A model generated the notes under the pieces. The model searched no databases. It was not told where the DNA came from and worked only from the letters and a program-made list of their open reading frames with translations. The position numbers and the translations under genes were made by a program. DNA of 64,000 nt from an uncultured bacterium (GTDB lineage Bacteria > Chloroflexota > UBA5177 > JANWHV01): positions 359,870-423,869 of the forward strand of contig CAWHAE010000008.1 of NCBI GenBank assembly GCA_963827235.1, given 5' to 3'. Positions 122 through 16,872 of this stretch are shown in pieces. Each line of letters begins with the position of its first letter. The first letter of the stretch is position 1.

Positions 122-391
122 CTATGATGCCGAGGACTGCATTGGCATCGCAGTTGCGCTACGCCGGCGCCGGCGCCGGCCCACATATCCTTTGGTCGCG
201 TAAGGCGTGGCGTCACCCCAAGATCGAATCAGGCTAGTGCTGCCGCAGCGGCCGCATGTCAGGATCGAGCGCGGTGGCAATGCCAACGCCTCGGCCTGGC
301 TGACGGGCACGCTGCTTGCCTCGGTGTGGTGAACGAAGCCCCGGCTATTTGAGCAGCTCAAACACTCGATCTGCCGCGCATATAGTCCCAC
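122..391 (-). CDS. small hypothetical protein with two CxxC pairs (possible zinc ribbon)
   Basis: ORF 122..448 contains CLSC...CGRC and a basic tail; GTG start at 391 assumed. Confidence 0.35.
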   Translation of the reverse strand: MGLYARQIECLSCSNSRGFVHHTEASSVPVSQAEALALPPRSILTCGRCGSTSLIRSWGDATPYATKGYVGRRRRRRSATAMPMQSSAS

Positions 392-723
392 TGGAGTCTC
401 CCTATACTGCCACCCGGCGCCACATTCGGCACCAAAGCCGCGGATCACCCGACTGCACTCCGCGGTGTCAGTCGTTTAGTGCTGGCTCCATTCTGTTACG
501 GAGAGCTTTGCGGCGCACCACCTGTCCGGTGGATTGCAGGGCGGAAAAGGGACTAGCCCACGAACTCATCCATTGCCATACGTGAGGCCGATGCGCCTGC
601 ACCCATTTATCGCCATAATCAACAACGGCGGAGAGCATGGAGCCAGCCTCGTGGTTGAGGCCATGGCATGCAGAACCGACACGTGGGGATGTGGGCTCGG
701 CAATGCATGCTCGTGGGAGTATC

Positions 724-1254
724 ATGGAGAAGCGCATGAAGCCGGTGTTGCTGGCAGCGTTTCCGTCGCTAGACCAGGCACTGGGCGCTATTGACGATCT
801 GGTGATTGCGGGCTTCGGCGGAGATGCCGTGGGCTTGGCTTCCCGGGAGCGACCGTACGGCGAGTTGCAGCGTGAGAGTCAGGATCCGGTGAATGCGGCT
901 GGCAAACAGGACATCGCGGGCCAAGCTGATTTCTTCTCGCGGCCTGATGATGGCGGTGGGTGCGCGCGCAGCAAGTACCGCGGAACCGGCACTATCGTGC
1001 AAATTCCCGGCGTGGGACCGGTCGCCGTCTCCGGTCTCTTCGCCGGGGCAGCCGGTGTCAAGCACTGGCTGGCAGGATGTCTCAGCGACACCGACGCCGG
1101 TACCTCGGAATGCGGCTACCGTGAGAGCCAGATCGGCGCCGGTAAGGCGCTGGTTGCAGTTCTGCCCGAAGGCAGGTCGATTTTGGCTGGCGAAATACTG
1201 CAACGGCACGGCGGAGAGTTATCGCGAGCCTGGGGTCAAACCGCGCGCTGGTAG
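724..1254 (+). CDS. general stress protein-like (YflT/DUF1269-type) hypothetical protein
   Basis: AAFPSLDQALGAIDDLVIAGF...IPGVGPVAVSG...GKALVAV...ILQRHGG pattern; ATG at 724. Confidence 0.55.
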   Translation: MEKRMKPVLLAAFPSLDQALGAIDDLVIAGFGGDAVGLASRERPYGELQRESQDPVNAAGKQDIAGQADFFSRPDDGGGCARSKYRGTGTIVQIPGVGPVAVSGLFAGAAGVKHWLAGCLSDTDAGTSECGYRESQIGAGKALVAVLPEGRSILAGEILQRHGGELSRAWGQTARW

Positions 1255-1393
1255 CAACGGCGCCCGCACATCGTTCGATACTAGTGGTTTGGCGCCAGTT
1301 ACTGTGACGGCCAGTCTGAGCTTCTGGGCGAAGCGGCTTGCAGATGTTGTTCTATGCCTACCGTATCCAGGTGGGTCAGACTGAGAGAGTAGA

Positions 1394-1891
1394 GTGGAGC
1401 GCCGTCTGCTGACGCTGCGTGTCAAACAGCGCGTGCTTGGGCCCGGTGCGGACTACGAGATCACCCAGCCAGAGAGCGGCGAGATCGCGTATGTGGTCAA
1501 GAGCGTGCCAACCGGCGTCGGTCACTCGTTCGAGATGCACAACGCTGAGGGCGCCACGATCGCTACCATTCATCAGCACCTGTTGCCGGTGGAGCCAAAC
1601 TACGTGATCCGTCGCGATGGAATAATCGTGGGAGAGATTCATCGCGACCTGTCCGCGGTGACCTTTCCCCGCTTTGTCCTGGGCGGCATCGACGGGCTGG
1701 TGCTGACTGGCGACCAATCGGATACCAAGTTCAGCCTGCTATTCCGGGGCGAGGTCGCCGCCCGCGTCGAGAAGGAGCTATCGCACGTGGGCACTGCCTA
1801 CACGATGAGAATCTCCGGTGACGTGGACATAGTGACCGCCCTATGCATGCTTGTCGCGGTGGACGATGCCATTGGGCAGGAGGCTGACTAA
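1394..1891 (+). CDS. LURP-one-related/scramblase (Tubby C-like) protein
   Basis: LRVKQRVLGPGADYEI...AYVVK...ALCMLVAVD pattern. Confidence 0.7.
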   Translation: MERRLLTLRVKQRVLGPGADYEITQPESGEIAYVVKSVPTGVGHSFEMHNAEGATIATIHQHLLPVEPNYVIRRDGIIVGEIHRDLSAVTFPRFVLGGIDGLVLTGDQSDTKFSLLFRGEVAARVEKELSHVGTAYTMRISGDVDIVTALCMLVAVDDAIGQEAD

Positions 1892-6612: not shown

Positions 6613-7827
6613 TTAGGCATGCAAGAGCTCGGCGATCGTCACTGCCTGTCCAGTGGCTATGGACTTGTTCGCCGCCACGCCCATGAGCACGGACATGGCG
6701 CCGTCCCATGAACCGGCCATGTGGCCCAGAGGATCCGGCAGGGTCAGCGCCCCAAACAGCCGCTCGAGGAGACGCTCGTCGCCGCCGCCATGATCGCCGG
6801 CAGGTTTTGGAATCTCATAGTTCGCCACCGTACCGCTCTTGTGGTAGACGGCTATTACGCTGCTGGCTGCTTGCGCCAGCGGCCCGGTCTCGTCCTCACG
6901 AAGCTCCATGCGACCCTCTGTGCCCGTCAGGGTAGCTCGCCAGCCCTCGATCGGACTGAATGCGACGAGCGAATAGCTGAGCTGCGTCCCGCACTTGTAG
7001 CGCGCCACCAGACTCATCGTATCCTCTATATCTATCTGCTCGGCGTAGACGCAGCGGTCGCGGTAGTAGCCGTCGTATTGCTCGGCGTCGAAGTAGAAGC
7101 TCTTCAGGAAAGGATCGGACAGCAGATCGACGTAGAACTCGCAGCTACGAGCGTACTTACAGGTGGAGCAGCGCTCGCCGCGTTCCAGGCGCGTGGGGCC
7201 ATAGAAGCGCAGTTGCCCGAGAGCATAGACGCGCTCCGCCTCGGCACCAAGCCACCAGTTGATCATGTCGAAATGATGGGTGGCCTTCGTTACCAGCAGG
7301 CCGCCAGAGTTCTCTTTCAGCCGGTGCCAGCGCCGAAAGTAGTCGGCGCCGTGCCGCCGGTCGAGATACCACTCGAAATCGACATTGAGCACCTTCCCGA
7401 CCGCTCCCTCGAGGAGCAGCTCCTTCGCGCGGGTGACGTAGGGCATGAATCGATAATTGAATGTGACGGTGACGTGCCCGCCGCTTCGTCGCTCGGCGGC
7501 GAGCACGGCGCGGCATTGCGCGTCGTCCACTACCATGGGCTTCTCGGCAATCACGGCGCAGCCCGAATCAAGGGCGCGTACGATATAGTCGGCGTGGTAG
7601 CGGTCCATAGTGGTGACGATGACGCCATCCGGCCGCGTATCCCGCAGCATGGAGTCGAAGCCGTCGAAGGCAGGCACGCCGCACTGCCGACCGACGAAGG
7701 CGGCTCGCCCTGGATTGGCATCGTACACGCCGGTCAGCACGGCGCTGGCTGTAAACTGACTCCTGATCGGCTCGGCATACATCTCCAGAGCGCGCTTGCT
7801 TGCTCCGGCGAGAACATAGCTCTTCAT
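6613..7827 (-). CDS. Gfo/Idh/MocA family oxidoreductase (YteT-like)
   Basis: AEKPM, HGADYFRRWH, KATHHFD, HGGGD motifs. Confidence 0.9.
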   Translation of the reverse strand: MKSYVLAGASKRALEMYAEPIRSQFTASAVLTGVYDANPGRAAFVGRQCGVPAFDGFDSMLRDTRPDGVIVTTMDRYHADYIVRALDSGCAVIAEKPMVVDDAQCRAVLAAERRSGGHVTVTFNYRFMPYVTRAKELLLEGAVGKVLNVDFEWYLDRRHGADYFRRWHRLKENSGGLLVTKATHHFDMINWWLGAEAERVYALGQLRFYGPTRLERGERCSTCKYARSCEFYVDLLSDPFLKSFYFDAEQYDGYYRDRCVYAEQIDIEDTMSLVARYKCGTQLSYSLVAFSPIEGWRATLTGTEGRMELREDETGPLAQAASSVIAVYHKSGTVANYEIPKPAGDHGGGDERLLERLFGALTLPDPLGHMAGSWDGAMSVLMGVAANKSIATGQAVTIAELLHA

Positions 7828-8243
7828 GCGACTCCCTGTATTCGGTTAGGTTGAACAGGTGGCAAACAGTCTGGCTGCACCGGCCGGATGCCGGTGCAGC
7901 GGTCAGCAGTCAATGTCTTGGCGCGCAACGCCAATAGCGCTGTCGGCCGGCGATTCATCCGCCAAGGCGGCTTTGCCCAATGCTTCCAGCGGGTGCGCCG
8001 CGTGGTCGCCTTGCCACAGCTTCTGCGCCCCGAGGCAGTACGGGTGAACGGCGGCAGCGCCGACACGCTGCCCCCAGTCCGCTTCTGCTGCCCCACACGT
8101 CTCGCGCCGCACCTCTACCGCAAAGACAGGTCCAAGAGCGTAGGAACCTACACCGGACACAGAGTAGGCATCATCCTGCGTCGTCATGCGTTTCACGTGG
8201 CTCAGCACGACAGGTTCTGTTCCAACCCAGTACCGGTCCCAGC

Positions 8244-11200
8244 CTACCGCCGCTCTTCCGCTTGCAAGGTAGTGCCGAGCTCCGTCGCCTCAGGCATCTC
8301 ACCAGGCGGCACCCATTCCTCGATCGCCATCTGGAAGCGCCAGAACCGCTCGAATCGGCACACCACGCTTCCGTCCGCCAGCAGGGACTTGTACGCGATG
8401 ACCTGCGTGCCGGAGCCCACAGCCTTCGCCGTTGCCAGCACCTCGTCCGGTTCTGCCTGCAGCGTTAGCGGTAGCCATGCAGTAGGTCCCAGCTCGATTT
8501 CCGTGCCCAGCAGAGCGGTGCGAGAGTCTTCCTCCCGCCATACGATGTAGTGTCCGCCCTTCACTGCCCGCACCATCCCTTCAATCTCCGCTCCGGTCGC
8601 CTCCTTCACAAAGTCATCGCGGCGGCACCGGTGCTCGCCTGTACGCAGCAGCTCCGCCAGATTCTTGATCGCTGCGATCTCGCTTCGGGGCAGCTCTTCA
8701 GGCAACACAACATCGTGCGTGTCCGCGGGAAATGTGTCGTGAATCAGCGCGAACGCGTCCATCAATGGGTCTTCGAACGCTTCCGGCTCCCCACCGAACT
8801 GCCCCTGGAAGCGCAGCACGTGCTGCTGATTGCGCACCGGGACCAACAGCAGGTCGCGCGGCTCGCGCACTGCGCGCATGAAGCGATATACCTGCACCAT
8901 TTCGTGCACCGTGCGTCCCGAATGATAGCGAAGTGACACTTGCATCGCCGATTTTGGATCATCCTCCGGAAGTGCGTCCAGCTTCTCGTCCTCCAGCCAC
9001 GCTGCAGGCAGATCGAACGACACTTCCACCGCGCAGTTGCTTTGTCGATGGTTGGTCAGGCGGAGACCGCCGCCAGGAATCGGCCATGGGGCCAGCTCGA
9101 GGTTCTCGAGCTGCTCGCCGGTCTCCGGCACTACCAACTTCCACGGCACGGCCTGCGCCAGCGGTTCCGCCTGAAGTGTCATCCGCACACCTCGCCGCTC
9201 CAACTCCGGATAGGCGTCGAGCAAAGCGAGCCTGTTATCCCCGCACACGAAATCGTGCGCGAGCATCTCAACGCCCTCGACGGCGACCGGTTCCATTGTC
9301 TGCAGCGCCCGATCGAACACATCCGCCATCTTCATTCCAGCCGGAAGACGCGCTTTCACCTCCATGTGGATCGGCTCCGTCGGTGATCGAGACTCCCGGC
9401 GAATTCCCTTCGCCTCCGGCCGCACCACGAGCGAACTTCCAGGAGGGTTGAGGGCACGCTCTATCTCGCTCCAAGGCTCCTGCAGCGCCGACGGCTGCAG
9501 CCGAGCCTGCTGCAGCGCGCCCAGCAACTGGGCAGCGCTCTCCTGAGGCGCAAGATGCCAGAGCACTTCGAATGCGAACGCCGCCGCGTGCCGGGCCGCC
9601 TGCTGCTGCCAGCCTTGCGCGTCCGAACCCTTCTTGCCAGCGATTAGGTCAGAGATGCCGCGCACGACAAGCCAGGCCACACTATGAGCGTAAACGGCCT
9701 CCAGAAAGCCCCGCCCCTCCATCTCAACGGCTACAGCATCCGAATATTGCTTACGCAGGAACCTGTATGTCGCCGATCTTGTGTGGCTCACCACCTGCTC
9801 GCCTGCCGCGATGGGTCCGACGTGCGCGACCGGCTCACCGCGCCGGGGACCGTGGATACGCGCATGCCACGCCGTGCCACGTCGGCAGGAGCGAGCACGC
9901 TGCACCAACCCGAAATCGCTCTGCCCTAGGTCAGGCCGCATCAGGAACTCCCGATCTGCCTTGCCCGCGTGATAGTTGTACACCTTGGTCGCGGCCACGA
10001 CGTCGCCGAGCTTGACGTCTTTCAAGCCACCTCCGACGCCGACGAACAGGCCTACCTGCGCCTCGGCAACGTTCAACGCGCGCTCTGTCTGCTGGGCAGC
10101 CGCTACGTTACCCGCGCCGACTTCGGCGATCAGCACCTCCCACCGGCAGTGCTTTCCTTCGAAGAATCCCCGCTCGTACCCGGTGCCATAGTTCACCTGC
10201 TCCACGGGATCGCTGAGGTGCTCCCGCACGGCATCGTATTCGATGCCCAGTGCGCTGAGTATCACGGCTTTCCCGGGCCGCCCCTTTCCGGACGTTGGCC
10301 TCGGGTAGGGTAGAAGTGGGGACCAGCGCGACGGACCGCTGTCCGCGCCCTCCGTCAGCGCCGAATACTCCGCCGCTATCGCAGGATCGGCGCGCACATT
10401 GCGTCGCAGGGGACCCGACGCCCAGTTTCTCGCAGTAGGATCGCTCTCGTCCAGCACCCTTCCTGCGCCACTGAGGACGATCTTCAGGGCGCCGGGCAGC
10501 CGCTCCCCATACGAGCACCGCAGTAGCGCGCGCTGCACCCCGCTCTCGACTGCTTCGACATGTTTGGGCTCGATCAGGCCATCGCTGAACGAGCGCGACC
10601 CCGCGCGCACCTCCAACCGGACGCCATCCAGTTCACGTCCCTCGACGCTGACGGACACGGTGCCGGGCGCCAGATACACATCGCGGATACATGCGCGCGT
10701 CTCCGCAATTCGCACCCGCACCGTGGCCCTCCCGACCTCTACAAACCCGGGCTGCACGCGGTTCGCGCCATACACGAGCTCAGTCACCAGCTCCTCGAAC
10801 CACCGGAACGTGGGACAGCCGGGGCCAGCCACGAATCGATCCGGCGGCGTCCATGGCACCGGATCTTGCTGCGACAGGACGTACTCCTTGTATGGCCAGT
10901 CGGTCGCCACGAGCGGAAAGGCAAGATGGCTGCCCACCAGCGGCCACTCCTGTACGCTCGGCACCTCCGACGTGCTGCCTGCTGGCATGACGAAGAAATA
11001 CACGCGGCCATCCGTATCCGGCCCCGGCATCCACACGCGGCCACCGCCCTGCAACAGCCACGATCCGACCTCGCCGCCCGGCACCACGCCGCCAAGTACC
11101 AGCACCGAGCCATAGTCGCAGACTCGGTTCTGTGCGGAACGCCGGTTGGACGGCGCCGGTGCTGCCTCCACGAGAAGCACGCGCAGCCGCCAAGGCTCCT

Positions 11201-11354
11201 CGGCATCACCCCGCACCAGCGCCAGCCAGAAGAATACTTGGTCATGCTGACCCAGCAGGCTTGCCAGGTCCTGAATGCTCAGCGACACTCCTCGACCCCC
11301 TAGATTCTGTCCGGTGCCATCATCCCGCCCGCTCAGGCCGCCGTCAAGCCGCAT
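8244..11354 (-). CDS. large multidomain protein with central purine nucleoside phosphorylase/MTA-SAH nucleosidase (PNP_UDP_1) domain; candidate defence effector
   Basis: AVILSALGIEY, FVGVGGG, LGDVV, GPIAAGEQVV, AVEMEG, VRGISD at about aa 360-600; ~340 aa N-terminal and ~420 aa C-terminal regions unassigned; start may be GTG 11288. Confidence 0.85.
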   Translation of the reverse strand: MRLDGGLSGRDDGTGQNLGGRGVSLSIQDLASLLGQHDQVFFWLALVRGDAEEPWRLRVLLVEAAPAPSNRRSAQNRVCDYGSVLVLGGVVPGGEVGSWLLQGGGRVWMPGPDTDGRVYFFVMPAGSTSEVPSVQEWPLVGSHLAFPLVATDWPYKEYVLSQQDPVPWTPPDRFVAGPGCPTFRWFEELVTELVYGANRVQPGFVEVGRATVRVRIAETRACIRDVYLAPGTVSVSVEGRELDGVRLEVRAGSRSFSDGLIEPKHVEAVESGVQRALLRCSYGERLPGALKIVLSGAGRVLDESDPTARNWASGPLRRNVRADPAIAAEYSALTEGADSGPSRWSPLLPYPRPTSGKGRPGKAVILSALGIEYDAVREHLSDPVEQVNYGTGYERGFFEGKHCRWEVLIAEVGAGNVAAAQQTERALNVAEAQVGLFVGVGGGLKDVKLGDVVAATKVYNYHAGKADREFLMRPDLGQSDFGLVQRARSCRRGTAWHARIHGPRRGEPVAHVGPIAAGEQVVSHTRSATYRFLRKQYSDAVAVEMEGRGFLEAVYAHSVAWLVVRGISDLIAGKKGSDAQGWQQQAARHAAAFAFEVLWHLAPQESAAQLLGALQQARLQPSALQEPWSEIERALNPPGSSLVVRPEAKGIRRESRSPTEPIHMEVKARLPAGMKMADVFDRALQTMEPVAVEGVEMLAHDFVCGDNRLALLDAYPELERRGVRMTLQAEPLAQAVPWKLVVPETGEQLENLELAPWPIPGGGLRLTNHRQSNCAVEVSFDLPAAWLEDEKLDALPEDDPKSAMQVSLRYHSGRTVHEMVQVYRFMRAVREPRDLLLVPVRNQQHVLRFQGQFGGEPEAFEDPLMDAFALIHDTFPADTHDVVLPEELPRSEIAAIKNLAELLRTGEHRCRRDDFVKEATGAEIEGMVRAVKGGHYIVWREEDSRTALLGTEIELGPTAWLPLTLQAEPDEVLATAKAVGSGTQVIAYKSLLADGSVVCRFERFWRFQMAIEEWVPPGEMPEATELGTTLQAEERR

Positions 11355-11445
11355 GGCGGCGCATGCCGACAGGTCTACGCCGACCCCGTCTGCCCCTGGC
11401 TAGTATCCTCCCGGGCATAGTCGTTTGCGTTGACGCAGCACGGAG

Positions 11446-12372
11446 CTAAGAGTTAGCCGGCCGTGGCGCGGGCGGTAGCTCGGGAAGCATGCCGAGCGGG
11501 GGTTTCAGGATCAGCGGCTTTCCGGCTATGCGTCTCAGCAGGTCTTCGTTGTCCCGCCACAGGACGTAGTGCTTGACGCCACGAAGAGGCAGCGGTATAT
11601 GTCGGATATCGTCGGAGCTGAAAACCACCGGCAGGAAACGATGATTAACGCTGTGGGCGTCATAGAGCTGCTGCGTGATGATCGCGCCCTCCCAGGGTGC
11701 ACCCAGACCGACACCCTCAGGCTCAGGCTCGCCGCGGAATCGGCGCGCGTATCGTTCCGTGCAGACGCACACGACGAAGTCTGCGCCTTCAAGTGATCGT
11801 TGCATCCAGAGAGGCAGACCCTCCGGAAAGTCCAGGTAGTAGCGATCAATATCGGCATCAACACCATCGTCACGCAGCTTGTCAGCGAGCGTAAGGCATT
11901 GGTCCTGGTGCTCGTCGGTGTCCCACGCATAGCTGATGACGGCCGTCGGGGCGATGGGTGCGGGCGATGACGTGCCAGGCGTGACGGCGGCGGACAGTAT
12001 GGGAGGGGCGGTTACGGCGGTAGGCGTGACCGTCGCGTGCGTAGCGGCAGGGGCTGTTGCCACCGGCACAGAGTGTGCCTCCTGCTCCAGTGCCTCCGTG
12101 CCCAGGTACGTGATGCGCACGCGCAGTGCGGCGTTGGGAGTGCTGGGGGTCTCGCGCTCTAGGTGGCCCTTGGCCACCAGATGCTCCACTGCGCGCGCAA
12201 CGCGCTCGTGGTCGAGAAGCTCGAGCTGCTGAGCCAGAGATGAAGCCGAGTGAAAGCGCCTTCGATCCTGTCTTGCAAGGGACTCTGTCAGTGTCAGGAT
12301 GCATCTGCGAAGCTGAGATCTCGGACTGGCTAGTTCGAACAAGAGCTTCAAAGCCAATCTGTACGTTGGCAA
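11446..12372 (-). CDS. winged-HTH + Pro/Thr/Ala linker + SEFIR/TIR domain protein (probably the 3' part of a longer frameshifted gene)
   Basis: VISYAWD...LADKLRDDGVDADID...WMQRSLEGADFVVCVCTERY...GVGLGAPWEG...FLPVVF is SEFIR-like; VARAVEHLVAKGHLE...VRITYLGTEALE is wHTH-like. Confidence 0.8.
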   Translation of the reverse strand: MPTYRLALKLLFELASPRSQLRRCILTLTESLARQDRRRFHSASSLAQQLELLDHERVARAVEHLVAKGHLERETPSTPNAALRVRITYLGTEALEQEAHSVPVATAPAATHATVTPTAVTAPPILSAAVTPGTSSPAPIAPTAVISYAWDTDEHQDQCLTLADKLRDDGVDADIDRYYLDFPEGLPLWMQRSLEGADFVVCVCTERYARRFRGEPEPEGVGLGAPWEGAIITQQLYDAHSVNHRFLPVVFSSDDIRHIPLPLRGVKHYVLWRDNEDLLRRIAGKPLILKPPLGMLPELPPAPRPANS

Positions 12373-12805
12373 GCAGCACGCCGATGATGGAGACCGGACG
12401 ACCTTGGGCCGTAGGAGACGCTGTGTCGTAGATCACGCTCTCCAGGTCACGCAGTTCGGAGAGTCGCATATGTAGATCGACGAACATGGCCTCCGGCTTT
12501 AGCCGCGCAGCAACGCCCAGCACAGCGACAGCCGTCGTCGGAGCATTGTTGCCGAACTGCCACCTTGCCACCGCCTTGTAGTCTTCTTGCTGGAGAGTTC
12601 GGAGGATCTGATCGAGTGCGTCGAGCTTGGGCGCGACATACTGCTTTGCCTGAATGGTTCGATGGGCCTGCAATCCACGGCGGTAGGCAGCTAGCTGGCT
12701 GGGCAGTTCACGCTGCATCCAGCCTATAGCCATGCCGATCCAGCTTGCGTCCCTCTTGACGTCGAACTGGAGCCTGGGAAGTCTGGCTCCATGGATCTGA
12801 TTCAA
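12310..12805 (-). CDS. probable N-terminal helical part of the SEFIR gene, in a different frame
   Basis: ORF 11882..12805 reads protein-like for its first ~165 aa and degenerates where the wHTH-SEFIR frame becomes protein-like (~12320). Confidence 0.5.
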
Positions 12806-12921
12806 CGGCCTTAGCCTTCAGCTGCGGTGGTCACGACCCTCTGGCTCCACTGCGCACGCCAGATGTCGATCGCCGGCTAGAACGACATACCCGAGATCGA
12901 ACTTGCAGCAGCGTGGCGCTC

Positions 12922-14313
12922 TCACGTGTGAGGGCCCCGCGCAGCAGTACCCTCCGCCTCGATCGCAGCCAACTCCGCCTCCGTCGGCTTCTCGACCTGC
13001 GAGCCATGCCGCACAAAGACATCACCAGAGTGGATTCGGTGCTGCTCATCGCCCAGATCGGACTTTACGCGGTAGGGCAGCTTCCGCCGATCTCGCAGCA
13101 CTTCTATTTCACCGACAGGCCCTACTCGGTAGTCGACGACCCGGTACCGGAGGTCCACTACTGGCTCTGTGTACATGGCAACGACCTGCTCAAAATGATC
13201 CTGGCTGAGCCTCGGGTCCGGCGGTCCGTGGTAAGCGTGCGTCCTCGGCGCGAAGCCTATCACCAGGAGCCGGGGACCGCTCGCCTGTGTGTTGGCCAGC
13301 GCGAGAAGGTCCTTGACCAGTTCTGCCTTCTCTCCCTTGGTGCCCGTGTGCAATTCGCGCTTGAAGTCGACGCTGGTCGTCTCCCATTGCTCAACCAGAT
13401 CGTCGATGCGGCGGGACTCGAACACATAGCCACGTTTGATTGCCCAGACGATACCGGTCATGGTGGCTACCATACTGAAGTAAGGACCGCCAACCAGCGT
13501 GGGTATGCGGATGAGGCCGAGATTGTTTAGCTCTTCGGCTACGGTGAGCAGCCGTGCCGTGCCGTTTTCCCAGCCAAGTTTGGACAATACTGCGTCGTGC
13601 CCTACAGCTGACACCAACACGTGATCGCTCCCGAGTTGTACACAGAGGTCCATAGTGGCGTTCAGCACCTGCTCCTGGGCAGGTTCAAGCTGCCAGGCGC
13701 ACGTAGACTCCCACGACTTGGCAGGGTTGGCGAGATAGGCTCTCCCGGCAGGTGTCAGGCTATACGCGATGCCATGCCCGATGGACTTTATCAGTCCGAA
13801 CTCTTGCAGTTCCTTGAGCATGCCGAGCAAGCCATGCCGCTGCGGCGACGTGTGCCACGACGGCCCTTCTGGCAGACTCTCGAAAAGCGCACTGGCGATC
13901 GTCTCGGTGTGCACTCCAACATACTCCTGCGCCAGCCCGGATTTCTCGGCGGCATCAACCGCACTCAAGATCCTGACACACCAGCCGAGGTAGTCCATGA
14001 CCTGGAGCGCCGGTTGACTCGCTGTCTCGTTGGACTGGCGGTCGTGGTGTTCACGCGTCCGCGTCAGAATCTGAGCCCGGTATTGCTCCTTCGCCGCCTG
14101 AACCAGAGGCGCTACGATCGCGTTGTTCGCGTAAGAGGCTACCTTTGCGTCGATGGCTGTCTCCATCTGCTGGATGGCTCGCTGGACGCTCGCGGCATTC
14201 GTGGGATCGAAGCGCAGCGTCGAGATCGTGCCGTCCAGCGAGGCGAGTGCGCGCTGCGCGTCCTCGAGCTCGCGCTGCAGCCTGTCAAAGCCACTGACCG
14301 ACAGGTTCATCAC
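12922..14313 (-). CDS. Schlafen AlbA_2 domain protein with N-terminal helical module and two wHTH-like segments
   Basis: C-terminal ETTSVDFKRE...LVKDLLALAN...LVIGF...PY...VFVRHGSQ; internal LKELQEFGLIK...YSLTPAGRAYL and AEELNNLGLIR...ATMTGI. Confidence 0.85.
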   Translation of the reverse strand: MMNLSVSGFDRLQRELEDAQRALASLDGTISTLRFDPTNAASVQRAIQQMETAIDAKVASYANNAIVAPLVQAAKEQYRAQILTRTREHHDRQSNETASQPALQVMDYLGWCVRILSAVDAAEKSGLAQEYVGVHTETIASALFESLPEGPSWHTSPQRHGLLGMLKELQEFGLIKSIGHGIAYSLTPAGRAYLANPAKSWESTCAWQLEPAQEQVLNATMDLCVQLGSDHVLVSAVGHDAVLSKLGWENGTARLLTVAEELNNLGLIRIPTLVGGPYFSMVATMTGIVWAIKRGYVFESRRIDDLVEQWETTSVDFKRELHTGTKGEKAELVKDLLALANTQASGPRLLVIGFAPRTHAYHGPPDPRLSQDHFEQVVAMYTEPVVDLRYRVVDYRVGPVGEIEVLRDRRKLPYRVKSDLGDEQHRIHSGDVFVRHGSQVEKPTEAELAAIEAEGTAARGPHT

Positions 14314-14363
14314 GGCGTATTCCTCCTTTGAGCTGCGATGCCTCCGCTTAGGTGGCAGCCAAG

Positions 14364-14420
14364 GGACACAGTGCCTCCGTCAAAGGACACAGTGCTGTGT
14401 CAAAGAGCCTGTGTCCTTTG
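14364..14420. promoter_or_regulatory. GACACAG direct/inverted repeat array (operator or terminator) upstream of the defence-like cluster
   Basis: GGACACAGTGC at 14364 and 14385; palindrome GACACAG-TG-CTGTGTC 14386-14401; perfect 12-bp IR CAAAGGACACAG (14381) / CTGTGTCCTTTG (14409). Confidence 0.6.
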
Positions 14421-14468: not shown

Positions 14469-16872
14469 TTAGCATTCGCTATAGCCGCAGCCGTGGCACT
14501 TTTTGCAGCCTTCCTCCAGGACGAAGGCGGCACTGCTGCCGCACTGCGGGCACATGTTGCCGAGCACTCGGGCCCCGGGCAGCCGGCCCGCTGCCGCGGA
14601 AGCGTTGCCGTTGCCGTGTCCGTTGCCGTTCTCGGCGACGTGCTTCTGCATGGGACGCGAGACGATGCTCAGGCCTTGCTGAATGTGCCAGCTCAGTGCC
14701 TGTGCCACGGCATCCGGGAGCGACAGCACGCGCTCGGCGCCGAAGCCAATCGAGCGGCTGCCGCCGATGCCGCGTAGCTGCCCGGCAATCAATCTCAGCC
14801 GTTCCTCGGTCGGTATCGGCGAGGGCAGGCGAAGGTTGAGCGAGATCAGCCTGCCCAGTGCCTCGGCGAGCGCCGCGATGTCCGAACCGGCGCGCCCCAC
14901 GCTGATGAACACCTCCAGCGGGCCCGCGTCGTCGGAGTTGACGGTGATATTGGCGGTGCCCTCCGGGGCCCGAAGCTGACGTGTGTAGCCCCAGACCACC
15001 GGCGGCCGCGGCTTCACGGTCGTCGGAATGGCTGGAATGTGCGCTTCGTAGTCTACGCCGGCCCCGGGCACCGGAAGCGGCAGGGCCTGGCCGTCGGTCT
15101 CCTCGCGTGCCGGCGTTCAGCACCTGGCCCGTGCTGAGGCAACCGTCGCGAAAGACGGTGATGCCTTTGCAACCTTCCTGATAGGCCAGCAAGTATGCCC
15201 GCGCCACGTCGTCCACCGACGCTTCGTTGGGCAGATTGACGGTCTTGCTGATGCTGTTGTCGACGCCGCGCTGGAAGGCGGCTTGCATCTTGATGTGCCA
15301 TTCGGGCAGAATCTCGTGCGCGGTGACGAACACGCGGCGCCACACTGCCGGCAGGATCCAGGTCGGCGACTGTGCCGTGATCGCTGACCCGTTCCATGAG
15401 CTCCTCGGAGAAGAAGCCCTGCTCGCGGGCAATGTGCTCGAACATGGTGTTGGTCATCACCAGCTTGCGCTCCGTGGGCTTGCCACGATCGACGACGTGC
15501 ATGAAACGCCAGGGCGAAAGCCGGCTCGATGCCGCTCGAGCAGTCGGCGATGATGCTGATCGTGCCGGTCGGAGCCACCGTGGTGAGCGTCGCGTTGCGC
15601 AGCGGCGGCCCGTCCTTATAGATCGATCGCGAGAAGTTGGGGAAGGAGCCGCGCGTCTTGGCCAGCTCCTGCGACTCCTGATGCGCCGATGCGGTTGACG
15701 AAGGACATGACCTTCTCGCCAAGCGCGAGGGCATCATTGGAGTCGTACGGAACTGCAAGCAGGAAGAGAAGGTCGGCCCAGCCCATGACGCCGAGGCCGA
15801 TGCGCCGATTGGCGCGGACAGTGTCCTCGATCTGCTCCAAGGGCAGAGGATTGATCTCGATCACGTCGTCCAGGAATCGGGTCGTGACTCGTGTGACCCG
15901 CTCGAGCTCTTCCCAGTCCACGGCGTAGGAGCCATCCTCGTTCTTGACCACGCATTCCGCGAGGTTGATGCTGCCCAGGTTGCAGGCGTCGTAACCGCCC
16001 AGCCACTGCTCGCCGCAAGGATTGGTCGCTTCGATCTGCTCTAGCTCCGGTATCGGGTTGCTGCCGCTGTTGTTAGCACGATCGATGAAGAGCAGGCCGG
16101 GATCGCCGGTGGCCCAGGCAGCATCGCAAATGCGGTCGAACACCATCTTCGCGTTGAGCGTGCCCGTGACTTTCCTTGTGTGAGGGTCGCGCAGCTCGTA
16201 GTCGCCCTCGCGATCGAGGGCATGCATGAACGCCTCCGTCGCGGCGACCGAGATATTGAAGTTCGTGATATCTCTGAGTCCAGTTTCCGGATCCGGGCGC
16301 TTGCAGTCTATGAACTTGAGGATATCCGGGTGGTCGACACGCAGCACACCCATGTTGGCACCACGTCGCGTGCCTCCTTGCTTCACCGCTTCGGTGGCAG
16401 CGTTGAACACGCGCAGGAAGCTGACGGGGCCGCTGGCTACACCGCGCGTCGTGGCGACTTCGCTGCCTTCCGAGCGCAGGCGCGATAGTCCGAAGCCGGT
16501 GCCGCCACCGCTCTTGTGAATGATCGCGGCGTACTTAATGGCGTCGAAGATCTCGGGAAGACTGTCGCCGACCGGAAGGACAAAGCAGGCCGACAACTGC
16601 TGTCCGTTCTGCTTCCCGGCGTTCATCAGCGTCGGGGAGTTGGGCATGAACTGGCGCTCGACCATGACCTGGTAGAAGCTCTCGGCCACACCGGTCACGC
16701 CGGCATCGTCGGCTCCCCACGCGCGCTCGGCCTGAGCCACCGCATCGGCCACGCGCCAACACATCTGGTCCTCGTCTTCCAACATCTTGCCGTCTTGGCG
16801 CCAGAGGTAGCGTTCCTTCAGCACACGTGAAGCACTTTCCGACCACCGCCCCTTCTTGCGCTCAACCATCAT
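14469..16872 (-). pseudogene. nrdJ: class II (adenosylcobalamin-dependent) ribonucleotide reductase with C-terminal TSCPD/zinc ribbon; about four frameshifts (likely sequence errors)
   Basis: [70 protein letters not shown]...[15 protein letters not shown] spread across five overlapping frames. Confidence 0.9.

Follow-up and report, generated by a model that had tools for sequence, protein, structure and literature searches.

Background

Fusions of Schlafen, SEFIR and PNP effector domains to diverse sensors are a well-described pattern, and all three domains are known anti-phage tools. We describe here a locus in which three neighbouring genes (hereafter the trio) carry one of these domains each, joined to non-catalytic modules. 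It lies in a stretch of 64,000 nucleotides (hereafter the window; positions 359,870 to 423,869 of contig CAWHAE010000008.1, assembly GCA_963827235.1) from an uncultured bacterium of the Chloroflexota. Such an islet adds no new principle to what is known of the effectors; what is new, as far as our searches reach, is the modules attached to them.

The closest described systems are the following. Schlafen domains are tRNases (PMC13462974, PMC13056530) with the catalytic motif Ex4(E/D)xK (PMC13056530), and in the CbCash protein E17, D22 and K24 form the Mg2+ catalytic centre for tRNA cleavage (PMC13462974). A survey of pSlfn proteins counts 55 fusion architectures, helix-turn-helix (HTH) fusions and many unannotated ones included, together with 558 unannotated clusters (PMC13056530). 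The bSEFIR system is defined by an N-terminal SEFIR domain (10.1101/2022.05.11.491447), and SEFIR is listed among the NAD+-cleaving defence domains (10.64898/2026.01.28.702374). PNP domains serve as immune ATP nucleosidase effectors in fusion proteins (10.1101/2023.01.24.525353). The activities that an initial annotation of the window attributed to the three domains agree with these reports.

Domains and predicted active sites

The reading that we prefer, with a probability of roughly 0.62, is that the trio consists of three genes of the abortive-infection type, independent of one another and gathered in a variable defence islet, each of which encodes a single polypeptide that joins a putative sensor to an enzyme domain. 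Pfam and PADLOC (version 2.0) both recognise the Schlafen/AlbA_2, SEFIR and PNP effector domains named in the initial annotation (Table 1). Its label of winged helix-turn-helix for the SEFIR gene fares less well, as its support consists of a sequence pattern and a MarR_2 match at E 0.1, below threshold.

The Schlafen gene (P0004) matches SLFN_AlbA_2 at residues 311-442 in Pfam (E 2.2e-6) and PDC-S50 in PADLOC (E 1.1e-8). It has 122 relatives in the databases (E<=0.001), mostly 350-390 aa long, whose matches take in about 77% of the query; most of these relatives begin at Met106 of the window protein (alignment A1), for a family size of about 355 aa. All 28 members of the aligned family match SLFN_AlbA_2, and E311 and K318 are invariant among them (28/28, A1), in the motif context 'WETTSVDFKRE'. 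The profile of these 28 members matches the CbCash structure (PDB 9ylu, E 1.2e-6), whose E17, D22, K24 and R25 align with E311, D316, K318 and R319; the first three of the latter also fit the Ex4(E/D)xK motif. Given this alignment and the motif match, we consider the Schlafen gene to be an effector of a known kind with an intact predicted active site, and it is predicted to cleave tRNA.

The part of about 200 aa that precedes the nuclease in this family gives sub-threshold winged-helix matches, scattered over 4 of the 28 members, and is possibly a winged helix. The 105-aa extension of the window protein is coding-like in its codon-position GC (0.68/0.44/0.80); it has no match in the Pfam copy that we searched, and its best PADLOC match is PDC-S63, at E 0.019 only. 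The database record of P0004 lists a precomputed Pfam family, PF27363, which is absent from that copy and may cover the extension. Kinship of the extension with the tail of a type IIG enzyme, encoded upstream of one homologue (locus L015), was considered and rejected (BLASTP E 0.12). A scan of viral contigs returned no relative of the Schlafen family.

Two overlapping frames make up the SEFIR gene. Both are spanned without interruption by P0235, a metagenome protein of 533 aa whose residues 2-167 correspond to the upstream frame and 163-246 to the downstream one (identities in Table 1). Because this alignment is continuous, we treat the two frames as one gene broken near 12310-12325, which bears out the frameshift suspected in the initial annotation. 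The layout of the gene is a new N-domain followed by a winged-helix-like part (together, the N-module), then a Pro/Ala/Thr linker, then SEFIR at the C-terminus (residues 142-298 of the downstream frame). Pfam scores the latter frame higher as SEFIR (1.6e-11, 45.1 bits) than as TIR_2 (1.2e-9, 39.1 bits), and a Bacillus SEFIR structure, PDB 5y8e, matches at E 1.2e-8. PADLOC reports bSEFIR at 1.9e-43, over profile positions 37-196 of 412 only. Bacterial SEFIR relatives keep the Glu of a 'PWEG' motif, at which the human adaptor in the alignment has Ile; we infer that this Glu is catalytic, and the gene is predicted to cleave NAD+. The N-domain has no Pfam, PADLOC or PDB match and no paralogue in the source genome (the orphan modules were searched against PADLOC at E<=1). 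A database search with the downstream frame yielded no more than 4 proteins, probably because the low-complexity linker swamped its 8000 candidates.

In the PNP gene, the PNP_UDP_1 domain matches Pfam at E 8.8e-23 and the CBASS 'PN-superfamily' effector of PADLOC at E 3.8e-12. It aligns with methylthioadenosine/S-adenosylhomocysteine (MTA/SAH) nucleosidases in the PDB (E 6e-10), with the EME (544-546) and SD (568-569) motifs matched. D569 is presumably the equivalent of Cap17 D472 or DtcC D353. The initial annotation had named missing catalytic residues as evidence against its proposal, and the predicted ones are present, E/D/K in the Schlafen gene and EME/ISD in the PNP gene, which is predicted to cleave ATP or dATP. 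The closest PNP domains in the databases, 50-57% identical over the PNP part only, belong to fusions with TPR, WD40, NACHT/NB-ARC, AAA_16, TIR and SEFIR domains. Outside the PNP domain, the database search gave one partial relative only, P0006, from a genome of the same genus. The orphan N-domain of this gene has no Pfam or PADLOC match, a best PDB match at E 0.48 and no paralogue in the source genome; among 401 Chloroflexota genomes it occurs in the source genome only.

Table 1. Coordinates of the trio and of its parts, in positions of the window
Feature	Position	Strand	Basis or remark
PNP fusion gene P0001, 1036 aa	8244..11354	-	ORF (open reading frame); database copy P0005 called at 1014 aa
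C-module, residues ~609-1017	8304..9530	-	alignment A2
PNP_UDP_1 domain, residues 363-596, E544-M-E546 and G566-I-S-D569	9567..10268	-	Pfam, PADLOC, PDB
Orphan N-domain, residues 1-355	10290..11354	-	codon-position GC 0.72/0.53/0.76, coding-like
SEFIR gene, one frameshift near 12310-12325	11446..12805	-	overlapping frames 11446-12372 and 11882-12805
SEFIR domain	11479..11949	-	Pfam, PADLOC, PDB
Putative winged-helix part of the SEFIR-gene N-module	12073..12324	-	65% identity to P0235 residues 163-246
N-domain of the SEFIR gene, ~166 aa, no known family	12308..12805	-	57% identity to P0235 residues 2-167
Schlafen-family gene P0004	12922..14313	-	longest ORF 463 aa; family core from Met106, nt 13998
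Schlafen/AlbA_2 nuclease domain, E311-x4-D316-x-K318 motif	12979..13413	-	Pfam
N-terminal extension, 105 aa	13999..14313	-	alignment A1; missing in most relatives

Effector exchange on the non-catalytic modules

The last part of the PNP protein, which we call the C-module (about 410 aa; query residues 605-1036), has 18 matches at E<=0.001 among 1.84 billion representative proteins, the window protein included. Its partners vary. PNP precedes it in 5 of the 18, again counting the window protein, and the EME and ISD motifs are retained in these PNP-fused relatives. Six others begin with a hydrophobic N-terminus, five of them with two segments and one with a single long segment at the threshold used. 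One carries an HNH nuclease, which narrowly misses the Pfam cut-off (HNH_2, 20.6 bits) and in PADLOC matches PDC-M68A (1.5e-23) as well as CBASS endonuclease effectors. Another, P0252, carries a SEFIR domain (bSEFIR at 5.4e-49, also found by Pfam) that is 42% identical to the SEFIR of the window. The remaining five have no N-terminal effector or are fragments. The C-module itself has no Pfam or PADLOC match, and its best PDB profile match, a dehydroquinase at E 0.038, is not meaningful. A profile of the module finds 5 matches in the 401 Chloroflexota genomes; 3 of them are weaker, cover its last part only and have DUF4365 or Mrr_cat-like N-termini. A distant relative with an Mrr_cat-like N-terminus, at 498-2160 of locus L041 (genome G392), is split over two overlapping frames.

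Exchange is observed on the N-module of the SEFIR gene as well: on this same module, P0235 carries PNP where the window gene has SEFIR. Apart from P0235, the N-module recurs only in one truncated locus, cut at the contig end, which was the single find of a metagenome scan.

We entertain, with somewhat less than even confidence, a more specific proposal: the C-module and the SEFIR N-module would be two undescribed families of phage sensors, each joined in one chain to a death effector that can be swapped for another, and the PNP protein of the window, with its orphan N-domain, would be a two-sensor version. The C-module would then pair with PNP, a two-helix membrane segment, HNH, SEFIR and DUF4365, and the N-module with SEFIR and PNP. 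A limited literature search found no published description of the C-module architecture, which does not show the family to be unpublished.

The same observations bear on whether the trio has anything to do with immunity. The Schlafen gene might instead encode a DNA-binding regulator of the winged-helix/AlbA_2 type, the PNP gene a nucleoside-salvage or signalling enzyme, and SEFIR might be a protein-interaction domain. Such roles would agree with the source labels of some Schlafen-family members ('putative DNA binding domain-containing protein', 'ATP-binding protein') and with the housekeeping function of the closest solved PNP relatives, the MTA/SAH nucleosidases; moreover, no known defence system stands beside the trio in the window, and the pSlfn survey notes that roles outside immunity are possible for some Schlafen genes of prokaryotes (PMC13056530). 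However, the triad of the Schlafen nuclease is invariant or near-invariant in its family, and the nearest relatives of the PNP domain are STAND, TPR and TIR fusions rather than free enzymes. A metabolic role also leaves unexplained why the C-module is swapped among PNP, membrane segments, HNH and SEFIR, and PADLOC matches to defence genes occur near members of the Schlafen family (see below). We therefore regard a non-immune trio as decidedly unlikely.

Genomic context and co-occurrence

The trio fills positions 8244-14313 of the window with three co-oriented genes on the minus strand. Its neighbours are sugar genes (two GFO/IDH/MocA oxidoreductases, a xylose-isomerase-like TIM barrel and a GH95 glycosidase) at one end and a ribonucleotide reductase gene, nrdJ, at the opposite end. 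ORFs and flanking domains thus agree with the initial annotation, which placed the genes between nrdJ and a sugar operon; it also saw no cyclase, NLR/STAND ATPase, Argonaute or two-component partner next to them, and our scan of the trio proteins and flanking genes likewise finds no cyclase/CD-NTase, SAVED, STAND ATPase, Argonaute or two-component gene. No direct or inverted repeats that might hint at an insertion were found around the trio.

Could the trio be a single multi-effector system whose members cooperate, with a shared trigger or relay that leads to the joint destruction of tRNA, NAD+ and ATP? The genes share a strand, the gaps between them are of 91 and 116 bases only, and no convincing terminator separates them (promoter and terminator scans gave results at the level of shuffled sequence). 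Elsewhere, SEFIR and PNP are joined in single proteins, for example P0012 and P0032. Their homologues, however, do not travel together. A scan for the Schlafen family, with one genome per species, gave 21 loci; they come from Chloroflexota, Acidobacteriota and Actinomycetota, with a distant relative in Xanthomonas besides. Homologues of the PNP gene, of either SEFIR frame or of P0235 lie within 10 kb of the Schlafen gene in 0 of the 21 (tblastn, E<=1e-3). Nor does the family have a conserved neighbour: comparison of 150 ORFs all against all gave six cross-locus pairs and no cluster larger than two.

Genomes of the same genus tell a similar story. Among four of them (completeness 83-92%), one has a homologue of the PNP gene, and none has the Schlafen family or the SEFIR N-module. 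The one with the PNP-gene homologue, G003 (92% complete), has no match for the other two genes. Since homologues do not co-occur, and since each of the modules is found elsewhere in a single chain with an effector of its own, the single-system reading is not supported, and we judge it highly improbable. The initial annotation, which had proposed the co-occurrence comparison, wavered between a new multi-effector system and a hotspot of stand-alone fusions; the count of 0/21 Schlafen loci, those of 1/4, 0/4 and 0/4 in the genus, and the joining of the modules to other effectors favour the latter and not the former.

The site itself varies within the genus. In genome G001, genes matching window positions 164-1885 and nrdJ flank 8.5 kb of other content, which includes a gene of HTH-TIR-nSTAND1-WD40 architecture. 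This gene (7167-11578 of locus L013) appears as an HTH-TIR-nSTAND1 frame overlapped by a WD40 frame, the two probably being one split NLR-like gene of about 1470 aa. In G003, nrdJ is followed by an MMPL transporter and a histidine kinase, and the PNP-gene homologue is located elsewhere, beside a CoA-transferase. This suggests that the slot beside nrdJ is a site of conflict-gene exchange in the genus.

Around the Schlafen family, a PADLOC search of 140 ORFs from 20 loci, made without a matched control, found type IIG restriction-modification, SspC/SspD, BrxC, TRIP13 and IetA. Neighbours matching kinase-type models (PD-T4-6, mad6) carry no weight, because the same models match in the control made on the window. 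In this control, 33 ORFs from elsewhere in the window gave kinase-like and TnpB-like matches only. One ORF outside the trio matches the Ser/Thr-kinase models PD-T4-6 and mad6; another looks like a TnpB-type transposon gene, judging by its matches to Cas12f/Cas12u models (E as low as 4.8e-41).

Integrity of the locus

The frameshift of the SEFIR gene is present in this assembly, and it may be a true break or an assembly error. One public DNA run matches 7% of sampled words, and no RNA run was found; reads of the DNA run gave three short contigs on the region, none of them over the SEFIR frameshift. At window position 10011, inside the PNP domain, a contig from a freshwater-sediment metagenome (X1), otherwise at least 99% identical, lacks one base, at a depth of about 2. 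On the nrdJ side, the reductase gene (14479-16872) is split into three frames. Its counterpart in G001, 90% identical at the protein level, is intact and encodes 802 aa; compared with it, at least four indels break the frame of the window gene. Either the broken nrdJ is a local assembly error or it is a pseudogene of a normally important gene; the clustering of indels in an otherwise conserved gene suggests assembly error as much as decay. GATC is present at the SEFIR frameshift (12310-12325) and at one nrdJ indel site (15340-15360). Should the assembly derive from nanopore data, consensus errors linked to methylation might account for both breaks, though this is only a hint. The source genome, in 21 contigs, is 95.9% complete with 9% contamination; it amounts to 8.0 Mb, against 4.4-5.4 Mb in the genomes of the same genus, so that the bin may mix strains or organisms.

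The islet could accordingly be read as a decaying remnant, in which the SEFIR gene, and perhaps others, would have become non-functional pseudogenes after horizontal acquisition. The break in the SEFIR gene, the indels of the adjoining nrdJ and the one-base difference within the PNP gene, seen in one short-read contig, would all fit such a history. Yet the frames of 1036 and 463 aa are intact and coding-like in their codon-position GC, and the indels in nrdJ would be explained as well by an error confined to this part of the assembly. We hold a decaying islet to be unlikely.

Possible function and its significance

If the trio consists of three independent genes, as we favour, each protein would stay inactive as long as its sensor module has met no phage cue. 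On meeting one it would oligomerise, which would activate the effector and halt the growth of the infected cell. The three proteins would act in parallel, without a shared pathway, the Schlafen protein destroying tRNA, the SEFIR protein NAD+ and the PNP protein ATP. A bolder form of the sensor-family proposal made above, in which all three proteins are triggered at the same time and tRNA, NAD+ and ATP are lost together, is less likely.

Several points weigh against three independent immune genes. The function of all three is predicted from sequence, and it is their architecture that marks the non-catalytic modules as putative sensors. The co-occurrence test is solid for the Schlafen family only, the PNP and SEFIR families offering one or two informative loci: the one usable locus of the PNP-gene family (L002) is cut at the 5' end of the gene, and just 8 kb upstream is visible at the only locus of the SEFIR N-module (L038). 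The tally of PADLOC matches near the Schlafen family, besides having no matched control, shares some of its matches with the window control. Since PADLOC finds only kinase- and TnpB-like genes elsewhere in the window, the islet is not part of a larger island of known systems. The SEFIR gene, being frameshifted, may be dead. Finally, the common strand, the short gaps and the want of a convincing terminator make an operon, and hence cooperation, possible.

What gives the locus its interest is that two of its modules show effector swapping, a repeated mark of real defence sensors, yet match nothing in Pfam, PADLOC 2.0 or the PDB. If they sense phage cues, they would represent two new sensor families, both rare, from little-studied phyla of soil and sediment, and the PNP gene would offer a natural case for finding out how a PNP effector benefits from having a domain of unknown nature on either side.

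Comparison with known systems

With pSlfn and Cash proteins (PMC13056530, PMC13462974, 9ylu) the Schlafen gene shares an Ex4(E/D)xK Schlafen domain joined to a non-catalytic domain in one chain. It may also share with them a setting among defence genes, matches to which lie near its family in several genomes. It differs from Cash and pSlfn5, the examples with which it was compared, in the order of its parts: its nuclease is C-terminal, after the part of about 200 aa, whereas theirs is N-terminal, with Csx15 or Ig-like sensors. No type III CRISPR locus adjoins it.

The SEFIR gene resembles bSEFIR (10.1101/2022.05.11.491447; PADLOC PDLC03957) in its bacterial-type SEFIR domain, which outscores TIR, and in its single-gene architecture. 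In contrast to bSEFIR, it carries SEFIR at the C-terminus, has another partner module in place of the C-terminal family part, and is not in an intact frame. In view of the C-terminal position of its SEFIR and of the partial match to the model, we do not count it as a member of bSEFIR.

Like the Cap17-like PNPs (CBASS Cap17, Detocs DtcC and PNP-Avs; 10.1101/2023.01.24.525353), the PNP gene has a PNP_UDP_1 effector within a fusion, with the Asp and Glu motifs kept. In the window protein, however, this effector stands between the orphan N-domain and the C-module, and no SAVED, receiver domain, CD-NTase, DtcA/DtcB or STAND ATPase accompanies it. In particular, the signalling partners of CBASS (CD-NTase and SAVED) or of Detocs (DtcA kinase and receiver) are found neither in the trio nor in its flanks.

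A last comparison is with the TIR- and PNP-STAND proteins (Avs/NLR-like). A Pfam scan of the three window proteins detected no NTPase domain, which sets them apart from this group. They resemble it in placing interchangeable death effectors on a sensor scaffold, and the slot that the trio occupies here holds, in G001, the gene of HTH-TIR-nSTAND1-WD40 architecture.

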